DNA from: Candidatus Margulisiibacteriota bacterium
GTDB lineage: Bacteria; Margulisbacteria; Marinamargulisbacteria; JBFWNS01
Assembly: GCA_050250935.1 (NCBI GenBank)
Contig: JBFWNS010000001.1
Span: forward strand, 480,001 to 544,000
Reading direction: 5' to 3'
Length of the DNA stretch: 64,000 nucleotides
Of the stretch, positions 13,790-26,108 are shown one piece after another. Each line of letters opens with the position of its first letter. Position 1 is the first letter of the stretch. The position numbers were made by a program, and so were the translations under genes. Below the pieces are notes generated by a model. That model was not told the DNA's origin and made no database searches. It was given only the letters and a program-made list of their open reading frames with translations.

Positions 13790-14562
13790 CAGTTGGGTAA
13801 AATAATCTGATCACCTTCGTGTAGCTGATCAGATTGAACGGCAGCTTGTTCGCTATCCACAACCCCAAGGGTGACAGGAATGGTTTCTTTTTTGCCCTTA
13901 TAAAGTCGAAGGACGGCGCCATTTTGAATGGCAGAAATAGGGACCAAAAGTACGTTGGTGTGATGCTTAATTTCGATGCCGACATCGGCTGTCATGTCCG
14001 GCAAAATGGATTGGGGTAAATCTTGGACTTGAATGTGAACCAAAAATTGCCCTTCGCTGGAAAATAAATGGGTTACTTTTCCCTTAAAAACTGTTTTTGG
14101 AAGGCTTTCGAATTGAATACGAACGGGTTGGCCTGGTCGAACATGGACCATGCCTTGCTGTTCCAGAGCCACCCGTAAATAGCGGCTTTTAAGGTTGGTT
14201 AAGGTTAAAATGGGGTTTTGAGCAAAAACCGTTTCGCCTTCTTTGTAAGATAGTTTTGTAACGGTTCCCGAAAAAGGAGCCTTTAAAACTGCGCCGCCAT
14301 CCAGTTTAAGCAGGGGTTTTCCTTTTTGAATAAAATCGCCTTCTTTGACAAAGACCTTGGCCAATGCGCTGGTAATGCCAACTTTAGCTTCAAATGTTTG
14401 GTCCGAGACGACGGTTCCAATGCCATAAACGGCCTCGGTAATGGATCCTTTTTTAAGGGCAATCGTGTGAACTTGGGTCGTTTTTTTAAACTGGGTCCAA
14501 CCGATGATACCCCCAACCAAACAAAGGCCAACCAAAAGGGCTACTACAGAACGAAGGCTCAT
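13789..14562 (-). CDS. Efflux periplasmic adaptor (MacA-like membrane fusion protein)
   Basis: N-terminal anchor, VKEGDFIQKGKPL, LKAPFSGTV, VPISAI. Confidence 0.85.
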   Translation of the reverse strand: MSLRSVVALLVGLCLVGGIIGWTQFKKTTQVHTIALKKGSITEAVYGIGTVVSDQTFEAKVGITSALAKVFVKEGDFIQKGKPLLKLDGGAVLKAPFSGTVTKLSYKEGETVFAQNPILTLTNLKSRYLRVALEQQGMVHVRPGQPVRIQFESLPKTVFKGKVTHLFSSEGQFLVHIQVQDLPQSILPDMTADVGIEIKHHTNVLLVPISAIQNGAVLRLYKGKKETIPVTLGVVDSEQAAVQSDQLHEGDQIILPN

Positions 14563-15221
14563 GGTTTTTGCTCCACAACAAAAAGGTGTTCGGCCGAAAA
14601 GTGGCTTAGACTAATCACTTTGTGGTCTAAGTTTATCACAATAGAATGGTCGAATCGGTGGGTGTGCTGAACTTTTAAGCGTGTGCCAAGGCCAATGCCC
14701 AAGTCTTGGATATAGGCTAAAAATTCTTCGTCAAAATCGCTAACACGGACCACTTCGACTTCCATGCCCTCTGTGCAGCTGGATAAAGGAAGCGCCGGTT
14801 TGGATTTGGGTATAGACCCGTCTTTGGCAGGAATGGGGTCGCCATGGGGATCGAATTCTGGAAATCCCAAGGCTTCTTCGAGGGCATTGATTAAGGCGTC
14901 GGAGGAGGCATGTTCGAGCATTTCTGCTTCTTCGTGAACCTTGTCCCAAGCAAAGCCCAATTTTTCGTGAAGGTATTGTTCCCAGAGTCTATGGCGTCGA
15001 ACCATGTTTTGCCCTTGGGCTAGGCCAGCGTCTGTTAGCGAAATACCTTGATAGGGAACATATAGAATCAAGCCTTGGTCTGATAGTTTTTTAAGCATCT
15101 CTGAAACCGCAGCTGCAGAGACATTAAATTTTTTCGAAAGAGAGGCTGGCTTGATGTAAGTTTCCCCTGCTTGTTGGCGAACAAACAGATACTTGAGGTA
15201 GTTTTCCGAAACTTCTTTCAT
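14559..15221 (-). CDS. DtxR/MntR-family metal-dependent transcriptional regulator
   Basis: ENYLK, RRHRLWE, HEEAEMLEH, DPHGDPIP, C-terminal FeoA/SH3-like domain. Confidence 0.93.
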   Translation of the reverse strand: MKEVSENYLKYLFVRQQAGETYIKPASLSKKFNVSAAAVSEMLKKLSDQGLILYVPYQGISLTDAGLAQGQNMVRRHRLWEQYLHEKLGFAWDKVHEEAEMLEHASSDALINALEEALGFPEFDPHGDPIPAKDGSIPKSKPALPLSSCTEGMEVEVVRVSDFDEEFLAYIQDLGIGLGTRLKVQHTHRFDHSIVINLDHKVISLSHFSAEHLFVVEQKP

Positions 15222-16148: not shown

Positions 16149-16646
16149 TTATTTTTCTAGGATGCAGAAGCGGTAGTGAAACCCGTTTTCGAGTTGCCAG
16201 TCTGTGGCGGAGATGGGTCTAAAATGGGGACCGGGATCTGGGAAAAAGGCGTCGCAGTTTACGGTTTCTTGAAGTTCTGTAATGTAGAGCCGGGTGCAGT
16301 GTGGGTGGCGAATCATTTCGTGGTACAGGGCGCTGCCGCCGATGACAAAAATGTGGTCGATGTCGGCTTCGTTGGCCCGGGCAAGGGCTTGATCGAGGCT
16401 GAAAAAACCAGCTTGTTTGGACCGACTTACAACCAAATTGAGGCGGTCGGGCAGGGGGCGAAATTTTTCGGGCAAAGACTCCCAGGTTTTTCGGCCCATG
16501 ATCACGGCATTTTGTTTGCCGGCAGCAGCAGTGGTTGTCAGGTGTTTAAAATAGGCCATATCGGCTTTTAAACGCCAAGGGAGGGTGTTCTGAATGCCAA
16601 TGCCTCGCTTGGCGTCGTGGGCTACGACGATGCTGAAAGGCTTCAT
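16149..16646 (-). CDS. folA: Dihydrofolate reductase
   Basis: [40 protein letters not shown]. Confidence 0.95.
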
Positions 16647-17452
16647 ACGGCTACAGGAAAACGAATGAAGGGGTCGGGGTCATAGCCTTCGATTACGATG
16701 TCTTCGGCTTTAAGGTTCCAAAACGGCTTTTGGGCCAAGACCAAGGTGGGTAGGGGTTTTGGGGTTCGGGTGAGTTGTTCTTTAACCCCATCCAGATGGT
16801 TTAAATACAAATGGGCATCGCCAAAGGTGTGGATAAAAAAGCCCGGTTTTAGCCCACATTCCTGGGCGACCATGTGGGTTAGAAGGGCATAGCTGGCAAT
16901 GTTAAAGGGAACACCCACCGCAATATCGGCCGACCGTTGATACAACTGGCAGTCCAATCGGCCATTGCAAACATAAAATTGGAAAAAAGTGTGGCAGGGG
17001 GGGAGGGCCATTTTCTCGATATCGGCGACGTTCCAAGCCGAAACCAGAAGGCGGCGAGAATCGGGGTTTTTTTGGATCATGTCGATCACTTGTGCCAATT
17101 GGTCGATGCGGGTTTTGTGATAGGCCTTAGTTTCGGGGTCGAGAGTGAATTTTTCCCAGTGGCGCCATTGATAGCCATAGATGGGGCCAAGGTTTCCGTT
17201 CGGGTCGGCCCAGGCATCCCAAATGCCGCAATCCAGACCGTCGTTAATGTTTGTTGCGCCGCGAATAAACCACAACAATTCTTTGACGACGCTTGAGAAA
17301 AACACTTTTTTGGTGGTGAGTAAGGGAAAGCCCTCTTGCAAATTGACCCGTAATTGATAGCCAAATACCGACAAGGTTCCAGTGCCGGTTCTGTCGTGTT
17401 TGGTTTCGCCGTGGTCGAGGACGTGTTGAACAAGGTCTAGATAGGCTTTCAT
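16643..17452 (-). CDS. thyA: Thymidylate synthase
   Basis: [41 protein letters not shown] at 17452. Confidence 0.96.
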
Positions 17453-17522
17453 GGTGTTCCTTGCAAGAAAATAAAGGTTTTTATCGATTAAAAGAAGTGT
17501 GTCATAATGATAGGACTTTTTT

Positions 17523-18455
17523 ATGAGAAAACCAAACCTTTTTCGAGCCATTCTTCAAACGGTTTTTCAGGTTCAAATTTTAGGGCTTCTGGTCTTGGTT
17601 TTGACCAGCTTTTTGTTTGCTGTGGAAGGGTTTGATGGGGACAACCTGGTGCTGAGCAACGGGGTAGGTTGGCGTGAAAGTTTGGTTAGTGCGACCTATT
17701 ATACTCGCCCCATGAGCGGCATTAAAATTCAGTTGCAAGATGGGACTCTATTGGATGGGGTTTTTACCGAGGCTGATTTACCATCGGCAACCCTTGCAAA
17801 TAGCCCGTATTTGGATCAGCAATTAACGGGGAGTGTTCATATTTTTTCAATTCCTACAGCCAACATTGATTCGATAGATAACGATAATGGTAATTTGGCA
17901 GGCTGGATTCCCTGCGATGGCCGTTCTTTGAGCCGAACAACGTTTGCGCGGCTTTATGAGCGTATTGGAACAACCTGGGGAGCTGTTGACGGGACCCATT
18001 TTAGCGTCCCGGATTTACGCGGATATTTTCTAAGGGGGTTGGATGCGATGGGGACACAAGGTGCTGCATCACGAGATACTGGCCGAACCATGTCTGCAAC
18101 CGTGCAAGCGTCTGCAACTGGGTATCCGGTTACCCCTATGAGCTTAAACTTGTCGTCTGTGGCGGGCCACATCCACTCGTATTGGGATTTTTTTTGGATT
18201 ACGCGCTCAGGCGCTGATGTTACCGTAGGAAACAGCTATGGGGTTTCCTATGCTGGGGAGCAAAATTTGGGAGAGAATTTTCATTTGAGTTATGACGCCA
18301 ATTTGCCTTGGTTTGATACCGATGATTATTTGTATCAGGCATGGCGGACAACGGGTTCTGATAGTCATACACACACCGTAACGTTGAGTAGTACCCATTT
18401 TGATTCGGAAACCCGACCGATTAACAAGGCATTTTTTTTCTTTATTAAGGATTAA
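17523..18455 (+). CDS. Secreted phage tail-collar-domain (tail-fibre-like) protein 1
   Basis: Hydrophobic N-terminus; [38 protein letters not shown]; two HxH motifs; ETRPINKA. Confidence 0.85.
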
Positions 18456-18458
18456 TCA

Positions 18459-19343
18459 ATGAAACTAAAATGGGTTGGATATGGGTTGGTTGCTTTGATT
18501 TTTCTGGGCATTAGAGCACAGTCGCCTTTATACGCTGCCGCTTATGTGAATCAAAGTGAGATTAAATTTAGAAATGGGAGTGGTTGGACGGTGGTGTCGG
18601 CCAATAGCCAAACCGTGCTTAAAGCAAAGTCTAAATTAATGTTGGATAATGGCCTTGTTGTGGATGATGCGGTTATTGAAGAGATTTCTCTTTTGGGGAC
18701 CATTCAGTCTTTTGCCTGTTCGGATAGTCAAGTTCCGGCCGGATGGTTGCCGTGTGATGGACGAGCAGTCAGTCGTGCAACATATGGCTCTCTTTATGCC
18801 AAAATTGGAACAACTTATGGCAGCGGGGATGGTACTTCAACTTTTAATTTGCCGGATTTGCGGGGTGTTTTTGTGAGGGGAAGGGATAATTTTGCGACGA
18901 GCACTGCGGGGCATGATCCGGGTGGAGATCGGGCTTTGGGGGTTACTCAAAATGGCGCAACCAAATATCCGGCCAGCACGGTTTCAAAAGTTACCGCTAC
19001 GGATACCCATACCCATCAATATCGGGATGCGTGGTTTTCAGAGGCTTATTTTAGCAGTAGCTATGGCGCTGGACCTGGTACCGATCATAGTGGCAGTGCA
19101 CCGAGTTTGGTTCGGAATACGGATTCAACCCTTGATACGGGTCCGGGATTTGGATCTCGGCATGGTGATGATTATGGTTCTCAAAACCGGAATGACCGTA
19201 CGGGTTGGTTTGGTTCGGCTGGGTCCGTTGGAATGAGTACGGTTGGCGCTCATACCCATACCATTGCGTCAAGTTCAGGCGTTACCGGGGATGCTGAGAC
19301 CCGCCCCCTTAATGCGGCGGTGAATTTTTACATTAGGTATTAA
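18459..19343 (+). CDS. Secreted phage tail-collar-domain protein 2
   Basis: Signal peptide; PAGWLPCDGRAVSRATYGSLYAKIGTTYGSGDGTSTFNLPDLRGVFVRG; HTH twice; ETRPLNAA. Confidence 0.88.
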   Translation: MKLKWVGYGLVALIFLGIRAQSPLYAAAYVNQSEIKFRNGSGWTVVSANSQTVLKAKSKLMLDNGLVVDDAVIEEISLLGTIQSFACSDSQVPAGWLPCDGRAVSRATYGSLYAKIGTTYGSGDGTSTFNLPDLRGVFVRGRDNFATSTAGHDPGGDRALGVTQNGATKYPASTVSKVTATDTHTHQYRDAWFSEAYFSSSYGAGPGTDHSGSAPSLVRNTDSTLDTGPGFGSRHGDDYGSQNRNDRTGWFGSAGSVGMSTVGAHTHTIASSSGVTGDAETRPLNAAVNFYIRY

Positions 19344-19344
19344 T

Positions 19345-20136
19345 ATGAACATGTTACAACGGGTTTTGTGTGTTGCGATTGTTTTGATGGTGGGCGCCTT
19401 GTGGGCTCAGCAAACCTATTTATCTAACGATAAAGTGCAGTTTAAAGCAGGTGCTTTTTGGTCAACGTCGGTCGACAATAATACGTATGTCAGGGCTTCG
19501 CATAAAATTCAGCTGGCCAATGGCATTATTGTTGACGATTTGGTGTCTTCGTCGAATTCCAATTTTGATGCGATTATGCTGGGGGCCATTGTTGCTTTTG
19601 CTTGTCCGGAAAATCAAATCCCAACGGGATGGATGGTTTGCGATGGCCGTGCGATCGACCGGGTTCAATATGCAAATTTGTTTACGGCTATTGGGACGAC
19701 ATGGGGCTCAGGTAATGGACACTCCAGTTTTAACATTCCTGATTTACGTGGGCGGTTTGTACGTGGCGCGGACAATATTGGTGGAACAGCAAAAGGAATT
19801 GATTCTGGCCGTGTTTTGGGGACTTATCAATCTTATTCAACCGCTTTGCCCAGTGTTGTGAATGGGGATTTTACCATTTCTAATTCATCGGATGGAACGC
19901 ATAGTCATTCCTTTAATGATTATCGTTGTTCTTACCAGGATGGATCGGATGCGGTTTGGGGCAATAGCCCTATTGATAGTTATCCGTATGATGAAGAGCT
20001 CCAACCGTATTCTAATCCCTTGGTTCGAACATCTTCGGCTAATCCTGCACACTCTCATAGCCTTACCATGGATTCTGGGTGGGATACTGAAACCCGACCC
20101 CTTAATATGGCGTTGGTGTATGCCATTAAATATTAA
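19345..20136 (+). CDS. Secreted phage tail-collar-domain protein 3
   Basis: Signal peptide ending ALWA; PTGWMVCDGRAIDRVQYANLFTAIGTTWG..FNIPDLRGRFVRG; HSH twice; ETRPLNMA. Confidence 0.88.
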   Translation: MNMLQRVLCVAIVLMVGALWAQQTYLSNDKVQFKAGAFWSTSVDNNTYVRASHKIQLANGIIVDDLVSSSNSNFDAIMLGAIVAFACPENQIPTGWMVCDGRAIDRVQYANLFTAIGTTWGSGNGHSSFNIPDLRGRFVRGADNIGGTAKGIDSGRVLGTYQSYSTALPSVVNGDFTISNSSDGTHSHSFNDYRCSYQDGSDAVWGNSPIDSYPYDEELQPYSNPLVRTSSANPAHSHSLTMDSGWDTETRPLNMALVYAIKY

Positions 20137-21316
20137 GGTTCCTGCCTTTGGCTTGGCCTGTTTGCGCTGGGCTTTTTTGGGACTTTTAGCGGGTTATGGG
20201 TTATTGGCGTGGGTGTCTGGGGGCTATCAGGCGTATTTAAGTCCTATTCACTTTCCCATGTGGATGGCGCTTCCGTTGTCTCGTGGGGGACTGGTTGGAT
20301 TAACCAGTTTAATGGTTCTTGGCCTTTTGGGCATGGTTTTTGGCCGTACCTACAAAGTTGGTGTGATGCTTGTTTTATTGGCGTGGACCTATTTGGGGTT
20401 GGTTGAAAAAACCCTTTACACCCATTTTCACTATTTGGTGGTTGTGGTTTTGACTTTATTTTTGTTAACCGATTTTCCGGTTTTACGCGGTCAAATTCCT
20501 GCATGGCAGCGGTTTGCTTGGCGGGTATTGGCGCTGCTTGTTTTTTTCTATTCTACCGTTCCTTTGCTTCAGCAAAGTTGGCTGTTGGGCACACCCTTGC
20601 GCATGATTTTATTCCCGATCCAGCACCATGGTTTTTTCCATGCATTGGCCCTTGGGATTGGGCCTCAACTGCTGGCCATTGGCCAGGTTGTTCTGGGGCT
20701 TTTTGGGGTTGCTTTTTTGGTGTGGCCCAAAACCCGGAAATGGGGTGTAATTTTATTATTGGCCCAGTGGTTGATGGATGTTGGGCTGCTGTTTTCGCCG
20801 TTAACACGGCAGTCGATGGGGCTATTGTTTGGGTTAAAGCCCTTGTTGTTGTTGGTTTTTTTGGAACAAGAAACCGCCCAAAGGGTTCTTGAGCGGATAA
20901 AAGGGTGTTGGAAGCCTTTGACAGAGGTTAAAACCCCAGTGGTTTTTGGGGTGGTGATGGTTTGTTTTGGCTTGGTTATTCAGGGCATGGGGCTGTTTTT
21001 ACAAGAGCCCTTGGCCAATTTGTGGCAACCCCGCCTAAGAACCCCTGTTCCCATGAGTTTTCTGTTAAGAAATCCCCAAACGGGGGCCTATTCCCGCCTT
21101 GGGCTAGAGGCGAATGCTTATCAACAAAGCGTGATTAGCGCCAACCCTGTGTTTGGACTGGCCTATGGCAAATTTATTCAAAAAACCTTGGCGCATGAAC
21201 ACTATTTCCCAGAAATTTATGCGGATTCTCCCCTGATGAAGCCAACCCTTAATTTAAGTCTTGTTACCGTGTCTATTTGGAGTTCCCCATGGATTTACCC
21301 TTCATTAAATCGTTAA
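20120..21316 (+). CDS. HTTM-domain / vitamin-K-dependent gamma-carboxylase-like membrane protein (degenerate)
   Basis: Multi-TM; YLGLVEKTLYTHFHYL and IPAWQ..VFFYSTVPLLQQSWL align by eye with the HTTM core; ATG 20120 overlaps the upstream gene. Confidence 0.65.
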   Translation: MPLNIKVPAFGLACLRWAFLGLLAGYGLLAWVSGGYQAYLSPIHFPMWMALPLSRGGLVGLTSLMVLGLLGMVFGRTYKVGVMLVLLAWTYLGLVEKTLYTHFHYLVVVVLTLFLLTDFPVLRGQIPAWQRFAWRVLALLVFFYSTVPLLQQSWLLGTPLRMILFPIQHHGFFHALALGIGPQLLAIGQVVLGLFGVAFLVWPKTRKWGVILLLAQWLMDVGLLFSPLTRQSMGLLFGLKPLLLLVFLEQETAQRVLERIKGCWKPLTEVKTPVVFGVVMVCFGLVIQGMGLFLQEPLANLWQPRLRTPVPMSFLLRNPQTGAYSRLGLEANAYQQSVISANPVFGLAYGKFIQKTLAHEHYFPEIYADSPLMKPTLNLSLVTVSIWSSPWIYPSLNR

Positions 21317-22383
21317 GTCGCTGTTGGGGTTGGTTTAAATCCCCTTGGGAGGCACAGGCCTGCTTTCGATGGGGGTTTTTGGGGGTTGTGGTTTGGCAAA
21401 TGGCCAGCTTTTTTTATTTGGATACCTTGCATGGGTTGTATTTAAACCAAGTCTTCCATTTGGCCTTGGGTGGCTTTAACTGGTTTTCGGATCCGATGTG
21501 GTTGTTTTTGTTTATCCTGGCTTTGGCAGGTGGGGTCTTGGGGGTTTTGGGGCGATATCCCCGGCTGGGGCTCTGGCTGTTTGTAGGGGCCTATGGCGCC
21601 ATTTTGGCGGGGGATGTGTTGTACTATACGCCTGGGCGAGGCTTGCTTTGGATAACGGGGTTTTGGTTGGCAGTTTTTTCTTTGTATCCCAGTCAAAATT
21701 GGCAAAGGCTGTGGCTGTTTGGGCAATGGTGTTTTGCCCAGGGGTGGTTGATGGCCGTGGTTGGCCCCACACAATTGTTTTTTAAGATGGTACCACTGTG
21801 GAGTTGGGGGTTTTTGCTCTTGGTTATGCCCGCTTCGTTTTGGGATTTTGGAAGACAGGTGATGTGCAGGCTTAGGGATCAAAAAGGGAAGGATCGTTCT
21901 GTAAGGCCTTTTCAATTCCTCCATGTGGCGGTGGTGCTGGTGTTTGTGGCTATACAATGTGTCTTGCCGCTTCGGCAAATCTGGCTTCGGGGAGATGTAA
22001 ATTGGACCGGAGAAGGGGACTATTTTTCTTGGCGGCCTTTTTTGTCGGTTAAACAAGGCGAAATTGTGTTTACCGTTATTAATGCGAAAACAGGGGAATA
22101 CGAGAAGCCCAAGTTGGATACCGCATTAACGGAAGCCCAACGATTTGCACTCAAAACCCAGCCCGATGTGGTTTGGCAAATGGCCCAGATGCTGCAGAAA
22201 AAATATCAGCAAAAAGGGTGGAAGCCGGTGGTAACAGTGACCCATCTTTTGTCTTTAAATGGACAGCCCTTGGGAACGGTTATTGATCCCACCTATAGCT
22301 TGGGTGAAGTTCCCTATTCTTGGGTGCGGCACAACCCTTGGATTTTGGATCAAAACACCTTCTCTGCCCCCCTTAAATTATAA
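21289..22383 (+). CDS. HTTM-domain / vitamin-K-dependent gamma-carboxylase-like membrane protein
   Basis: LPLRQ..GDVNWTGEGDYFSWR, TQPDVVWQMAQ, SLNGQP..IDP, HNPWIL, typical of the VKG carboxylase C-terminal domain. Confidence 0.8.
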   Translation: MDLPFIKSLSRCWGWFKSPWEAQACFRWGFLGVVVWQMASFFYLDTLHGLYLNQVFHLALGGFNWFSDPMWLFLFILALAGGVLGVLGRYPRLGLWLFVGAYGAILAGDVLYYTPGRGLLWITGFWLAVFSLYPSQNWQRLWLFGQWCFAQGWLMAVVGPTQLFFKMVPLWSWGFLLLVMPASFWDFGRQVMCRLRDQKGKDRSVRPFQFLHVAVVLVFVAIQCVLPLRQIWLRGDVNWTGEGDYFSWRPFLSVKQGEIVFTVINAKTGEYEKPKLDTALTEAQRFALKTQPDVVWQMAQMLQKKYQQKGWKPVVTVTHLLSLNGQPLGTVIDPTYSLGEVPYSWVRHNPWILDQNTFSAPLKL

Positions 22384-24480
22384 TTTTTTTTCGTAAAGCA
22401 GGCGGTACATCCAATAGCTTTTGAGTACCCGGGTGACGTAGTAATGGGTTTCTGAATAGGGGATGTTGGCCACAAAGGTGTCGATGTCTTCGTTTTGGGA
22501 CACGCTGGTCTCGGCCCATTTTTTGGTGATGTTGGGCCCGGCATTGTAGCCCGAGAGCATGTAAAACATGTTCCCGTCGAATCGTTTCTTAAGATAGGAC
22601 AAATAGAAAGTACCAAACCGAATGTTTACTTCGGGTCTGTACATCATGTCGTTGCCTTCCCAATTGGCGCTGACATTTTTGGCGATGCCCATGGCGGTTG
22701 ACGGCATGATTTGCATGAGTCCCAAGGCGCCGCTTCTGGATTTTGCGGTGGGTTTGAAGGAACTTTCCTCCCGCATTACCGCCAAGACAAAATAGGGATC
22801 GACCCCAAATTCTGCGGCGCTGCGTTGAACATCCTCCCAATAGGCTTTGGGATAGAGCAATTCGGCAATTTCTCGGCCAATGGAATTGCTGTTGGGGTCC
22901 AGGTTAAAGCCTCGACTCAACAGTACAGTAATGGCATTGGTGTAGTCGCCCATCTTGGCGTAGACGTAGGCCAGGGTATAAATCAGGGTTCTGGGTCGCC
23001 CAGAAGACACGGATAGTTTGTTTTGTAGCTCGTCGATGGCAAATTCCCCCAGGCCCATTTCAGTTAAAACAACATATTTGTCGATGGGCTTGAGCTGGGT
23101 CAGCTGAAACTTATCGGCTATTTGGTCGATTTGCTCTGGAAAATAGGTTTGTAAAACCCGAAACGAATAATAGGTTAGGGGATAGGCGTTTGCGCATTGT
23201 TTGAAAATTTCCAGGGCGGTTGCTTTGTTTTTTTCGCCGGTGAGTCGGGCCTGCCAAAACAGCAATTTGGATTTTAGGGCCGAATCGCCCGAGGCGGCTT
23301 GGGTGTTGAAGATGCTTTGGGCTTGATCGGAACGCCCGCCCTTGAAGGCTGTCCAGCCCATCTCCCAAACCAACTTGTTCACATTGGGGTCGTGGGGGTG
23401 TTGGGTTCTAAAAGTGGTGAAATAATCGTCGAATTCGGCTTGTTGATTCAAGGCCAACATGACCCAATAAAGGTTGTAATAGGCCCCGGAAATAAATTCT
23501 GAAGAAGGATTTTTGGAAATCAGGTTCAGATAATAATACTTGGCTTTGTCGAAGTCTTTTTTGCCTTGATAGGTTTTGGCCATGTAGTAGGTGGCTTTGG
23601 TGCTCCAGGTTGTGCTGGGGAAGGTTTTGATCACATATTGAAATGTTTCGATGGCCTCGTCGGCTTTGAAGAGCAGATAGGAACTCATGGCCTTGTGGGT
23701 CATTAATTCGGCGTTATTGCGAAGGTCTGGATAGCGCAGCAACAGCCACTGGGCTTGGGCTAGGGCGTCGTCGTAATCGCCTGCCGAATAAAGCGCTTGA
23801 AAATACCGGAAGGACTCGGACTTCGTGGTGAAAAAGGCATTGGCCGAGACGGGTTCTTCAGCAAGGGTGTTGCGTTGGTTCAGCAAGGATTTGTTGCTGT
23901 CGTAAAGCGGGAATTCCAGAGCCAGATTTTTGTAGTAGGTGTCGGTGGTTTGAAGGTCGCCAAGGGCAATGCTGGACCGAATGAGTTTGGCATAGAGGGT
24001 GGGTTTTAGGGCCGGATTGTCTTGGCTGCCCAACAGCTCTTGATAGAGTTTTCTGGCGGCTGCCCAGTTGTCTTGTTTGGCGTAGGTATCGGCCAGATTT
24101 AGGACCACGTTGGCATAGAATTTGCTTCTGGGAAATAACTGGCGCAGTTGTTTGAGGGTTTCGGAGGTTTTATTGGGGTCTTCATGCAGCAATAGCTCGA
24201 GCCGCAAAAAGGTTAGATAGACCCCAAAGGGTTTTTCGCTTAAATGAACCTGATCCAAGGCTGCTTTGGCCTCGGAAAAGTTGTTTTGCTTTAGTAAAAT
24301 AAGAGCTTGGAGCAGGTTTTTTTGGTTGGCGTCTTCCGAGGATTGGGCCAATTGTTCGAGTGCAGGGGTATACCGTCCGGCATAGTAGTGGGTTAGGGCT
24401 TTTTCAAAAAAGGGATCGGCAAAGATGGGGTAAACCAGTGCCCAACACAAGACCAGTGCGACGATTAAAATCCGTTTCAT
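22378..24480 (-). CDS. TPR-containing soluble lytic transglycosylase (Slt-like)
   Basis: Signal peptide, TPR helices, AVMREESSF, GALGLMQIMPST, YNAGP, IPYSET. Confidence 0.92.
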   Translation of the reverse strand: MKRILIVALVLCWALVYPIFADPFFEKALTHYYAGRYTPALEQLAQSSEDANQKNLLQALILLKQNNFSEAKAALDQVHLSEKPFGVYLTFLRLELLLHEDPNKTSETLKQLRQLFPRSKFYANVVLNLADTYAKQDNWAAARKLYQELLGSQDNPALKPTLYAKLIRSSIALGDLQTTDTYYKNLALEFPLYDSNKSLLNQRNTLAEEPVSANAFFTTKSESFRYFQALYSAGDYDDALAQAQWLLLRYPDLRNNAELMTHKAMSSYLLFKADEAIETFQYVIKTFPSTTWSTKATYYMAKTYQGKKDFDKAKYYYLNLISKNPSSEFISGAYYNLYWVMLALNQQAEFDDYFTTFRTQHPHDPNVNKLVWEMGWTAFKGGRSDQAQSIFNTQAASGDSALKSKLLFWQARLTGEKNKATALEIFKQCANAYPLTYYSFRVLQTYFPEQIDQIADKFQLTQLKPIDKYVVLTEMGLGEFAIDELQNKLSVSSGRPRTLIYTLAYVYAKMGDYTNAITVLLSRGFNLDPNSNSIGREIAELLYPKAYWEDVQRSAAEFGVDPYFVLAVMREESSFKPTAKSRSGALGLMQIMPSTAMGIAKNVSANWEGNDMMYRPEVNIRFGTFYLSYLKKRFDGNMFYMLSGYNAGPNITKKWAETSVSQNEDIDTFVANIPYSETHYYVTRVLKSYWMYRLLYEKKL

Positions 24481-24590: not shown

Positions 24591-24756
24591 TGTGGAAAAA
24601 GCTGTGGATAAATTGGGAGTAACTGGGTATCCTTTGGGGGTGCTCTTGTGGATAAGTCGTTTTTTTAGCCTTAACAGATCAACGGTTTTGGTTGGAAGGC
24701 GGGATTTGTAAAGTTTGTGGATAACCTGTGTATAAATTGAATAGAATTGGGGATAA
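24591..24756. promoter_or_regulatory. DnaA-box cluster upstream of dnaA
   Basis: tgtggataa at 24603, 24647 and 24716; tgtgtataa 24727; tgtggaaaa 24591; tggggataa 24748. Confidence 0.88.
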
Positions 24757-24761
24757 GTTGC

Positions 24762-26108
24762 GTGCCTGAATTGGAAGCTGTGTGGACAAAAATTAATACC
24801 TTTTTAAAAGAGGCCTTGTCGGTTCCGGGCTATCAAACCTTTTTGTCGTCGGCCAAGCCCTTGTCCTACGAGGATCAGGTGTTGTCTTTGGAAGTGCCCA
24901 ATACGTTTTCCAGGGCGTGGGTAAAGGAAAAATGCGAGCCGATTTTGCATCCTTTGTTGGAAGGGACGATGTATTATCCTTTGGTGTTTCGCTATGTGGT
25001 TCGGGAGGAAAAGCTTGAAACCGAGCAGTTGTCTATTTTTTCTGAGGCCAAAGAAGCCGAGGAAAAGCCAACTTTAACCCCCCATGGCTTTAACGCAAAA
25101 TACAGTTTCGAGCATTTTATTGTGGGGCACAACAACCGGTTTGCCCATGCGGCATCCGAAGCGGTGTCGAAAGCCCCAGCCAAGGCCTATAACCCGTTGT
25201 TTATTTATGGGTCCGTGGGATTGGGGAAAACCCATTTGCTGCATGCCATTGGGCTTAAAATTGCCGAAAAATTCCCAAAATCCAAAATCAAATTGTTGTC
25301 GTCCGAGGCCTTTACCAACGATTTGATCAACGCCATCAAAGACAAAAAAATGGAAGAGTTTCGGAAGCGCTACCGCAGTTTGGATGTGTTGTTGGTGGAC
25401 GATATTCAGTTTTTGGCCGGCAAAGAGCAGACCCAAGAAGAGTTTTTTCATACCTTTAACGAACTACACAGCCGAAACAAACAAATCGTGATTACCTCGG
25501 ACCGCCCGCCCAAAGAAATTCCAACCTTGGAAATTCGGTTGCGAACCCGATTCGAATGGGGTTTGATTGCCGATATTCAGCCGCCGGAATTCGAGACCCG
25601 AATTGCCATTTTACGCAAGAAAATCGAGATGAATCAGTTGGAGATTTCCGACGAAATCGCCCATTTTATTGCCACCCAAATTCCCACCAACGTCCGCGAA
25701 ATGGAAGGGGCCCTGACCCGAATTGCAGCGTATGCCGCCTTGTTGAATACCGAGGTAACCTTGTCCATGGCCAGCAACGTGATCCGGGATATGGTAGGGA
25801 TTAAACAAGAAAAACCTTTAACCATTGCGTTTATCAAGCGCAAGGTCTGCGACTATTTCAACATTACCAGTTCGGATTTAAACAGCAAAAACAGAACCAA
25901 AGAAGCGGCCTATTCCCGCCAAATTGCCATGTACTTGGCCCGGGAACTGACCAATGTTTCCTTGCCCAAAATTGGCGAAAACTTTGGCAACCGGGACCAC
26001 ACCACGGTGATGCATGCCTGCGATAAAATCAAAAGCCTTCTGGTTCATGATGCCGAAACCAAAAGCATTGTGAATGTCTTGATTTCGAATATTCGAAACG
26101 ACGAATAG
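24762..26108 (+). CDS. dnaA: Chromosomal replication initiator
   Basis: [42 protein letters not shown] 24762 is the probable start. Confidence 0.98.

Follow-up and report, generated by a model that had tools for sequence, protein, structure and literature searches.

Phage T4 fibers contain HxH motifs that bind metal, and homologs of GGCX, the vitamin-K-dependent carboxylase of animals, are widespread in bacteria. Here we describe a cluster of five co-oriented plus-strand open reading frames (ORFs), colA, colB, colC, httm1 and httm2, in which three proteins resembling phage tail needles are encoded together with two GGCX-like membrane proteins. The cluster fills positions 17523-22383 of the window, i.e. 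the whole 64,000-nucleotide stretch of DNA that was analyzed, from a Candidatus Margulisiibacteriota bacterium of the class Marinamargulisbacteria. Its genome is referred to as G000, while other G numbers denote genomes of the class or phylum, and L numbers denote loci. The three tandem collar paralogs resemble the MdpB ('microcystin-dependent protein') triplets of other bacteria, which are shorter, are not known to have signal peptides and adjoin acetyltransferases. The five genes form a real, conserved and lineage-specific system, and no description of the combination of collar and HTTM genes was found in the literature searched, most subscription journals and supplements lying outside the scope of that search. 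A paper on the lineage (PMC6349859) contains none of the terms 'adhes', 'tail' and 'carboxylase'.

In T4, the needle is trimeric and contacts the receptor with its tip (PMC9603124). Like the T4 gp12 and gp37 tips and the fiber 8kec, the window proteins combine a Collar domain with an out-and-back needle, with N and C termini meeting at the knob; unlike T4 and cyanophage fibers, they have a signal-peptide-like start, a lineage-restricted N-terminal domain and tandem paralogs, and no virion genes accompany them. The mosaic adhesive trimers (MATs) of Bdellovibrio are chromosomally encoded, secreted, phage-fiber-like adhesins with a conserved beta-rich domain past the signal peptide and variable tips; the solved tip of the MAT Bd3182 is a symmetric homotrimer, and 13 out of 21 MATs end in an S74 domain (PMC10769870). 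The window proteins would work in a similar way, their signal-like start being followed by a beta domain of ~45 aa that may or may not be homologous to the MAT domain, and they differ from the MATs in their length of ~290 aa, the collar/HxH needle, the lack of S74, the arrangement in triplets and the linked GGCX-like pair. The missing S74 does not alone exclude kinship with the MATs, because eight of these also lack it; the word 'collar' is absent from the main text of PMC10769870.

In GGCX, K218 is the catalytic base, the carboxylate of the substrate is held by N159 and H160 and CO2 is trapped by F299, while a lumenal clamp of PBD-1 and PBD-2 binds the propeptide; activity requires these four residues as well as W223, H287 and N290 (PMC12647623, 10.1101/2025.02.09.637231); PBD-2 spans D508-V604 (10.1101/2025.02.09.637231). 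The present system resembles the animal one in its homology over residues 54-504, in its secreted candidate substrates and in the catalytic residues found in one copy of relatives. It differs in having two copies that complement each other where the animal enzyme is a single chain, in lacking PBD-2, the C-terminal domains and a recognizable propeptide, and, in G000, in the absence of the catalytic residues. Another bacterial homolog of the vitamin-K-dependent carboxylase, MloH, alpha-carboxylates Asp in malonomycin biosynthesis (PMC12186529, 10.64898/2026.08.19.745780). Its substrate is an intermediate of nonribosomal peptide synthetase/polyketide synthase type and not a ribosomal secreted protein, and this malonomycin intermediate was the only substrate of a bacterial GGCX homolog found in the literature searched. 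A two-chain GGCX-like complex of a split HTTM and DUF5819 has been modeled (PMC12186529, 10.64898/2026.08.19.745780); there, unlike in the present system, the domains are split and not duplicated into an active and a dead copy, and no fibers are present.

Collar proteins and their link to GGCX-like genes

Pfam Collar (PF07484) was found above the cut-off in all three proteins (colA, E 4.6e-13; colB, E 1.5e-21; colC, E 9.5e-21), in agreement with an earlier note, made from the sequence alone, that had read the first three genes as collar genes. It was their sole Pfam match up to E 0.1, with no S74 and no toxin domain, and the three proteins account for all Collar matches in the whole G000 genome. 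PHROG tail-fiber matches were also obtained, and an NCBIfam scan of seven proteins gave no match. All three collar proteins are built alike: a basic/hydrophobic N-terminus and a beta-rich domain of ~45 residues precede the collar, which is followed by a variable tip flanked by two HxH and by a closing ETRP strand. The two HxH (residues 216/282 in colA, 184/265 in colB and 186/236 in colC) may bind metal, and at least two such motifs are present in 33 out of the 34 members of the fiber family.

By a heuristic of hydropathy and charge (not SignalP), a signal-peptide-like start was identified in all three window proteins, with a predicted cleavage of colA after LFA, and in 31 out of 34 family members, compared with 16 out of 125 other collar proteins, about ten of which look truly secreted by eye. 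The signal peptides that had been proposed for the three proteins thus pass at the level of this heuristic. The accompanying statement that fibers with collar domains normally carry no Sec signal holds only for the most part, the 16 positives among the other top collar matches being the part in which it falls short.

By sequence, colB matched T4 gp12 (1ocy) and the fiber of cyanophage A-1(L) (8kec), and by fold, weakly, the T4 gp37 needle (2xgf, E 3e-3). Its monomer model, built from 21 sequences, has a mean predicted local distance difference test score (pLDDT) of 57.5. The collar and the return strand are confident (pLDDT 92 for the latter) and the three N-terminal strands moderate, while the needle scores below 50 over residues 160-281. 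Position-specific subunit clades repeat inside family f20, and colA, colB and colC likely form one heterotrimeric surface adhesin.

Among the best 150 matches of a profile search of 1.84 billion representatives were 25 full-length family members, 12 of them new, and the family therefore looks small. For the beta domain at the N-terminus, no family was obtained from the Atlas. Its interpretation as an HTTM-specific propeptide or leader is unsupported, the domain being present also in an unlinked triplet of G036 and in G010. Another idea, that this domain is common to collar and non-collar triplets, was left unproven: a regular expression fitted on both sets (6/11 matches) was circular, an independent position-specific scoring matrix ranked colA, colC and colB 14, 34 and 220 of 468, and the hhalign probability was 1.5%.

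A search of 61 genomes with colB revealed tandem collars in several of them. Collar genes with GGCX-like genes directly behind them on the same contig were found in G000, G009, G024, G036, G052 and G023, and a metagenome locus (L161) holds three collar and four HTTM genes; the co-occurrence for which the earlier note had suggested a neighborhood search is thus found in five other genomes and L161, and the proposal is not refuted. In G018, the unit is apparently divided over two contig ends, with flanks as in G009. GGCX-like genes occur in 13 out of 146 genomes of the phylum, all 13 within the class. Out of the 55 class genomes, eight have the fiber type, according to a profile built from those genomes. 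GGCX-like genes are present in seven of these eight and in six of the other 47 (naive Fisher p 6e-5, which is overstated, because the seven positive genomes fall in three families only). No HTTM gene was found in 158 other collar loci (metagenome, viral and one genome), nor any collar gene within 5 kb in 80 GGCX-like loci of other phyla, by a collar hidden Markov model (HMM) that as a positive control detected 156 out of 160 collar loci. The HTTM link goes with the collar/HxH head and not with the triplet format.

GGCX-like genes also adjoin, or lie at most ~1.2 kb from, other secreted fiber-like genes in G027 (L063), G042 (L065), G008 (L069) and G051 (L070), the neighbors measuring 2556, 3738, 804+386 and 717+810 aa, respectively. 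Long fibers are present in 32 of the 55 class genomes, so this adjacency may be due to chance. The GGCX-like gene of G053 has no nearby fiber gene, and the copy in G033 is cut by a contig end.

It is very improbable that the collar genes are a tail-fiber remnant of a prophage or an extracellular contractile injection system that came to lie next to HTTM genes by chance. The Collar and PHROG tail-fiber matches would fit such an origin, as would the T-rich third codon positions of the collar genes (98th-99.9th genome percentile), but the frames are intact, the signal-peptide-like starts extend over the family, the N-terminal domain was seen in none of 80 viral loci, and the linkage is conserved across three families with both linkage controls blank. 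Conserved linkage and the two controls largely refute this reading, and they support the picture in the earlier note of domesticated secreted fiber-tip proteins with a conserved HTTM link. The neighbors of the cluster in the ORF list are of housekeeping type only, with no structural phage genes recognized among them. Integrase, capsid, baseplate and sheath genes, said beforehand to be lacking, were indeed not recognized, nor were tube genes, among the ORFs between 12 and 28 kb in the window or in the loci of relatives, Pfam having been run on only four flanking window ORFs. A P2-like prophage (G000:C1:34000-62000), with terminase, portal, baseplate, sheath and tape-measure-like ORFs recognized from the sequence and no family search, lies ~435 kb from the operon and has no Collar match.

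The GGCX-like pair and its catalytic residues

Gene 4 (httm1) matched Pfam HTTM (E 8.6e-11) and gene 5 (httm2) VKGC_lumenal_dom (E 1.6e-31, 21919-22356), and a ten-sequence profile of such proteins aligned human GGCX residues 54-504 (E 1.6e-54), which bears out their previous assignment as HTTM/vitamin-K-dependent-carboxylase homologs. Membrane and periplasmic domains were scored in 20 class proteins using HMMs from 118 outside homologs. With G023 and the second pair of L161 set aside because of truncation, eight complete pairs remain, and in every one of them the copy that scores better for the membrane domain scores worse for the periplasmic domain. The catalytic copy of G036 is entirely devoid of the periplasmic domain, and three out of four single-copy genes retain both domains well. 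Complementary scores are the pattern expected from subfunctionalization into a heterodimer, and the two GGCX-like proteins likely form a pair with divided labor. No description of such a recurring division, with catalysis in the membrane assigned to one paralog and periplasmic binding to the other, was found in the literature searched; a quick HTTM tree, which gave long-branch warnings, does not settle a single duplication.

In the window, both copies have lost their catalytic residues, which the earlier note had not observed. Substitutions in httm1 comprise N159->H, H160->F, K218->L, H287->W, N290->D and F299->L, and its periplasmic domain is degenerate (8 bits). In httm2, the catalytic residues are absent or replaced and the membrane core is ~85 aa shorter, with the K218 region gone, while the periplasmic domain scores 119 bits, the highest of the 20 class proteins. 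A third GGCX-like copy was not found in the G000 genome, and carboxylation is unlikely there, because both copies lost catalytic residues. In relatives, by contrast, one copy keeps N159/H160/K218/W223/H287/N290/F299 (G009, G018, G024, G036 and G052), as do two copies in L161, and the partner copy in these collar-linked loci has lost the catalytic set. All of 120 outside homologs, 117 of which were chosen by a profile of intact copies, retain N159, H160, K218, W223 and F299. Carboxylation by the pair is plausible in the relatives with one intact copy, and it is only for these that the earlier suggestion that the HTTM proteins modify the fibers can stand in this form.

Decay offers another view of these losses, namely that the two genes in G000 are relics of a formerly active pair and that the fibers function without them. 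Out of 48 rows in the tree, httm1 has the longest terminal branch (3.4, with 2.49 for httm2), the deletion of ~85 aa adds to the loss of all catalytic residues, and triplets without HTTM exist. We nevertheless find this improbable, as both genes, with ~20% identity to relatives, still have open frames that overlap, the httm2 deletion is in frame, and the periplasmic domain of httm2 outscores that of each of the other 19 class proteins tested, a sign of purifying selection.

Both menA and menB were found above the cut-off in G000, G009, G024 and G008, and cytochrome oxidase is present in 45 of the 55 class genomes. A loss of menaquinone or O2 use as the cause of the catalytic loss was ruled out, since G000 has menA, menB and COX1 as well as a menD in two parts that are probably coupled. 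The menD gene (G000:C4:175462-176989, L155) consists of two overlapping ORFs of 175 and 336 aa, with the overlap GTG-ATG-ATT-AA and a Shine-Dalgarno-like GAGG. It is unsplit in three relatives, none of 65 other tested loci is split, and it looks like a natural gene fission.

As regards a candidate substrate, the median content of Asp plus Glu in the needle is 0.096 in the fiber family versus 0.069 in 131 control units from 69 proteins, and an acidic dipeptide occurs in 25 out of 34 family members versus 28 out of 131 controls (G052_2 was mis-parsed as 0.0). In G036, the HTTM-linked triplet has 0.10/0.15/0.13 and the unlinked triplet 0.04/0.02/0.07, a two- to sixfold difference. We treat tip acidity as a lead only.

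The explanation that we favor, with a probability of about 0.45, is that the tail-needle proteins act as a heterotrimeric adhesin and that the GGCX-like pair binds the subunits in the periplasm after export, carboxylating their acidic residues in relatives with an intact copy and acting in G000 as no more than a holder or chaperone. Sec would export the three collar subunits, and the periplasmic domain of the pseudo-subunit would hold them against the periplasmic side of the inner membrane, where the catalytic HTTM subunit, if intact, would carboxylate them. The subunits would then form a heterotrimeric needle, stapled by metal, whose three distinct tip loops would bind a host or prey cell, possibly aided by Ca2+. 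In G000, the pair would be left with holding or assembly alone. A more far-reaching version, which we regard as tentative and rather doubtful, is a Marinamargulisbacteria analog of the animal vitamin-K system: a duplicated GGCX, i.e. a catalytic and a substrate-binding pseudo-subunit, would carboxylate Asp/Glu of the needle tips, yielding Ca2+-chelating adhesins resembling gamma-carboxyglutamate proteins that grip host or prey, with the pair of G000 as a pure assembly chaperone.

The pair might also serve the fibers without carboxylation, the quinol/O2 chemistry of the intact copy working as an uncoupled epoxidase or strong base, e.g. for redox control in HxH metal loading, epimerization or cleavage. 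Homologs from Leptospira epoxidize without substrate activation (10.1101/2025.02.09.637231), and the modeled bacterial HTTM complex seemed functionally distinct from GGCX (10.64898/2026.08.19.745780). In the linked copies the K217 position is hydrophobic or polar (A, Q and N among them) and not Lys, the Y395 position is not kept, and the link, as stated, tracks the head of the fiber. On the other hand, N159/H160 and F299 are kept together with K218 in seven intact collar-linked copies, and MloH shows that bacterial homologs can carboxylate Asp (PMC12186529, PMC12647623); we consider a role of this kind unlikely.

A number of observations weigh against the favored explanation of an adhesin served by a carboxylating pair. 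The collar tree lacks three resolved class-wide subunit clades, so three homotrimers are also possible. Against an obligate linkage, the second collar triplet of G036 lacks an adjacent HTTM gene. The collar tips of G010 are very acidic, but a search for GGCX-like genes found none there (genome 89% complete, contig ending past collar 2). Family needles exceed the controls in acidity by a small margin, their segments are longer (87.5 vs 52 aa) and interrelated, and several HTTM-linked subunits are low in acidity (0.05-0.06). The bacterial proteins stop at about GGCX residue 504, before PBD-2. Neither copy in G027 retains N159/H160, and the better copy in G023 is partial (N159->D and H287->S), its pair not being complementary as measured (166/55 vs 88/42 bits, the second copy cut by a contig end). 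With no intact GGCX copy in G000, the carboxylation arm fails there, VKOR was not found in that genome, and neither menA nor menB was found in G036 (84% complete).

Gene layout and other fibers of the genome

The arrangement previously described, five tightly packed or overlapping genes between thyA and slt, was confirmed, with refined starts of genes 4 and 5 (Table 1). Gene 4 most likely starts at its ATG and not at the longest-ORF start at 19862, which would overlap colC by 275 bp; the ATG given for gene 5 is likewise the most likely start, from alignments of homologs. Gaps of 3 and 1 bp separate colA from colB and colB from colC, respectively, while colC and httm1 overlap by 17 bp and httm1 and httm2 by 28 bp. 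The divergent flanking gene we take to be thyA, from motifs in its sequence.

Table 1. Features of the collar-HTTM cluster and its flanks, with positions in the window.
Feature	Length	Position	Strand	Description
colA	310 aa	17523..18455	+	Signal-peptide-like start, N-terminal beta domain, Collar, HxH needle, variable tip, closing ETRP strand
colB	294 aa	18459..19343	+	Architecture as colA; matches 1ocy, 8kec, 2xgf
colC	263 aa	19345..20136	+	Architecture as colA; acidic tip
httm1 (gene 4)	398 aa	20120..21316	+	GGCX-like membrane protein, of the type catalytic in relatives; most likely start ATG 20120
httm2 (gene 5)	364 aa	21289..22383	+	GGCX-like partner, shortened membrane core, well-kept lumenal domain; most likely start ATG 21289
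Collar domain, colA		17898-18029	+	Pfam
Collar domain, colB		18696-18875	+	Pfam
Collar domain, colC		19582-19761	+	Pfam
Intergenic gap	70 bp	17453..17522	.	AT-rich, between probable thyA start and colA; read by eye
thyA (presumed)		16643..17452	-	Probable start ATG 17452; divergent flank, outside the system
slt		22378..24480	-	Tetratricopeptide repeat (TPR) + SLT lytic transglycosylase; convergent flank, 6 bp overlap with httm2

In the gap ahead of the colA ATG, a weak extended -10-like element (TG-t-CATAAT) and an AGGA were seen by eye; a consensus scan did not list the former, and the promoter and terminator scan was at chance level. Upstream flanks other than thyA are found in relatives, and no slt was seen beside the cluster in their ORF lists, which puts slt outside the conserved unit. 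The collar genes have, besides the T-rich third codon positions mentioned above, a low GC content at these positions, and the HTTM genes are nearer the average. Because upstream flanks differ between lineages, the cassette or its fiber part may move or be exchanged, a possibility noted together with the codon bias. Contigs of one sequencing run, which may be the source of this DNA, cover the stretch without gaps, and the one variant seen is too few for dN/dS. A DtxR/MntR-type metal-dependent repressor is encoded at 14559-15221, ~2.3 kb from the operon, and might bear on metal loading of the HxH needles. The dnaA gene lies at 24747-26108, where the cumulative GC skew has a small local dip only; its product shares 69-79% identity with the three best matches, two from Marinamargulisbacteria and one from UBP8, and about 50% with the others of 80 loci, which places the host in Marinamargulisbacteria.

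The G000 genome (1.95 Mb, completeness 95.85%) encodes further fibers. A second triplet of secreted paralogs (203/213/212 aa; G000:C3:224228-226119, L320) has a neck of fiber type and a beta-sandwich head, for which the Atlas leads, C1q and PTL_trimer, score below 0.9. Cassettes of two to three genes like L320 occur in G012, G030, G033 and G039, and a GGCX-like gene was not found in G012, G030 and G039. This suggests a class-wide family of small heterotrimeric fibers with exchangeable heads. The role of anchor that had been offered for the HTTM pair is unsupported, as secreted triplets of a similar kind, though with other heads, are encoded by class genomes in which no HTTM gene was found. Two giant secreted fibers of 2859 and 2965 aa (G000:C1:111850-120429 and 123925-132822) contain repeated GIGT-x-P motifs, and behind the first lies a small Cys-rich gene resembling the CxxCxxCC gene that follows the giant fiber of G042.

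With two secreted fibers of ~2,900 aa and a second small triplet in the same genome, the collar triplet, whose proteins are short and lack a C-terminal membrane anchor, could conceivably not be surface-held and instead be released as a lectin-like or antagonistic particle, or be added to the giant fibers or a pilus as a tip that can be removed. The proteins have no toxin domain, however, and the T4 needle tips are receptor-binding parts (PMC9603124), and we judge such a function distinctly improbable compared with that of a surface adhesin.

Implications

The system adds an accessory pair, undescribed in the literature searched, to the secreted phage-fiber adhesins. If the carboxylation proposed for the relatives is true, the collar proteins would represent the first case of a bacterial vitamin-K-dependent carboxylase acting on ribosomally made proteins. 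The operon offers a co-encoded candidate substrate, an intact enzyme (in relatives), a dead partner and a natural dead pair as control, i.e. a 5-kb cassette testable in E. coli. Carboxylation, if shown, would constitute a new kind of bacterial protein modification; otherwise, the pair would still be new as an accessory system that serves a secreted adhesin of phage origin. The cluster also suggests a possible means of attachment to other cells for an uncultured lineage neighboring the Cyanobacteria.

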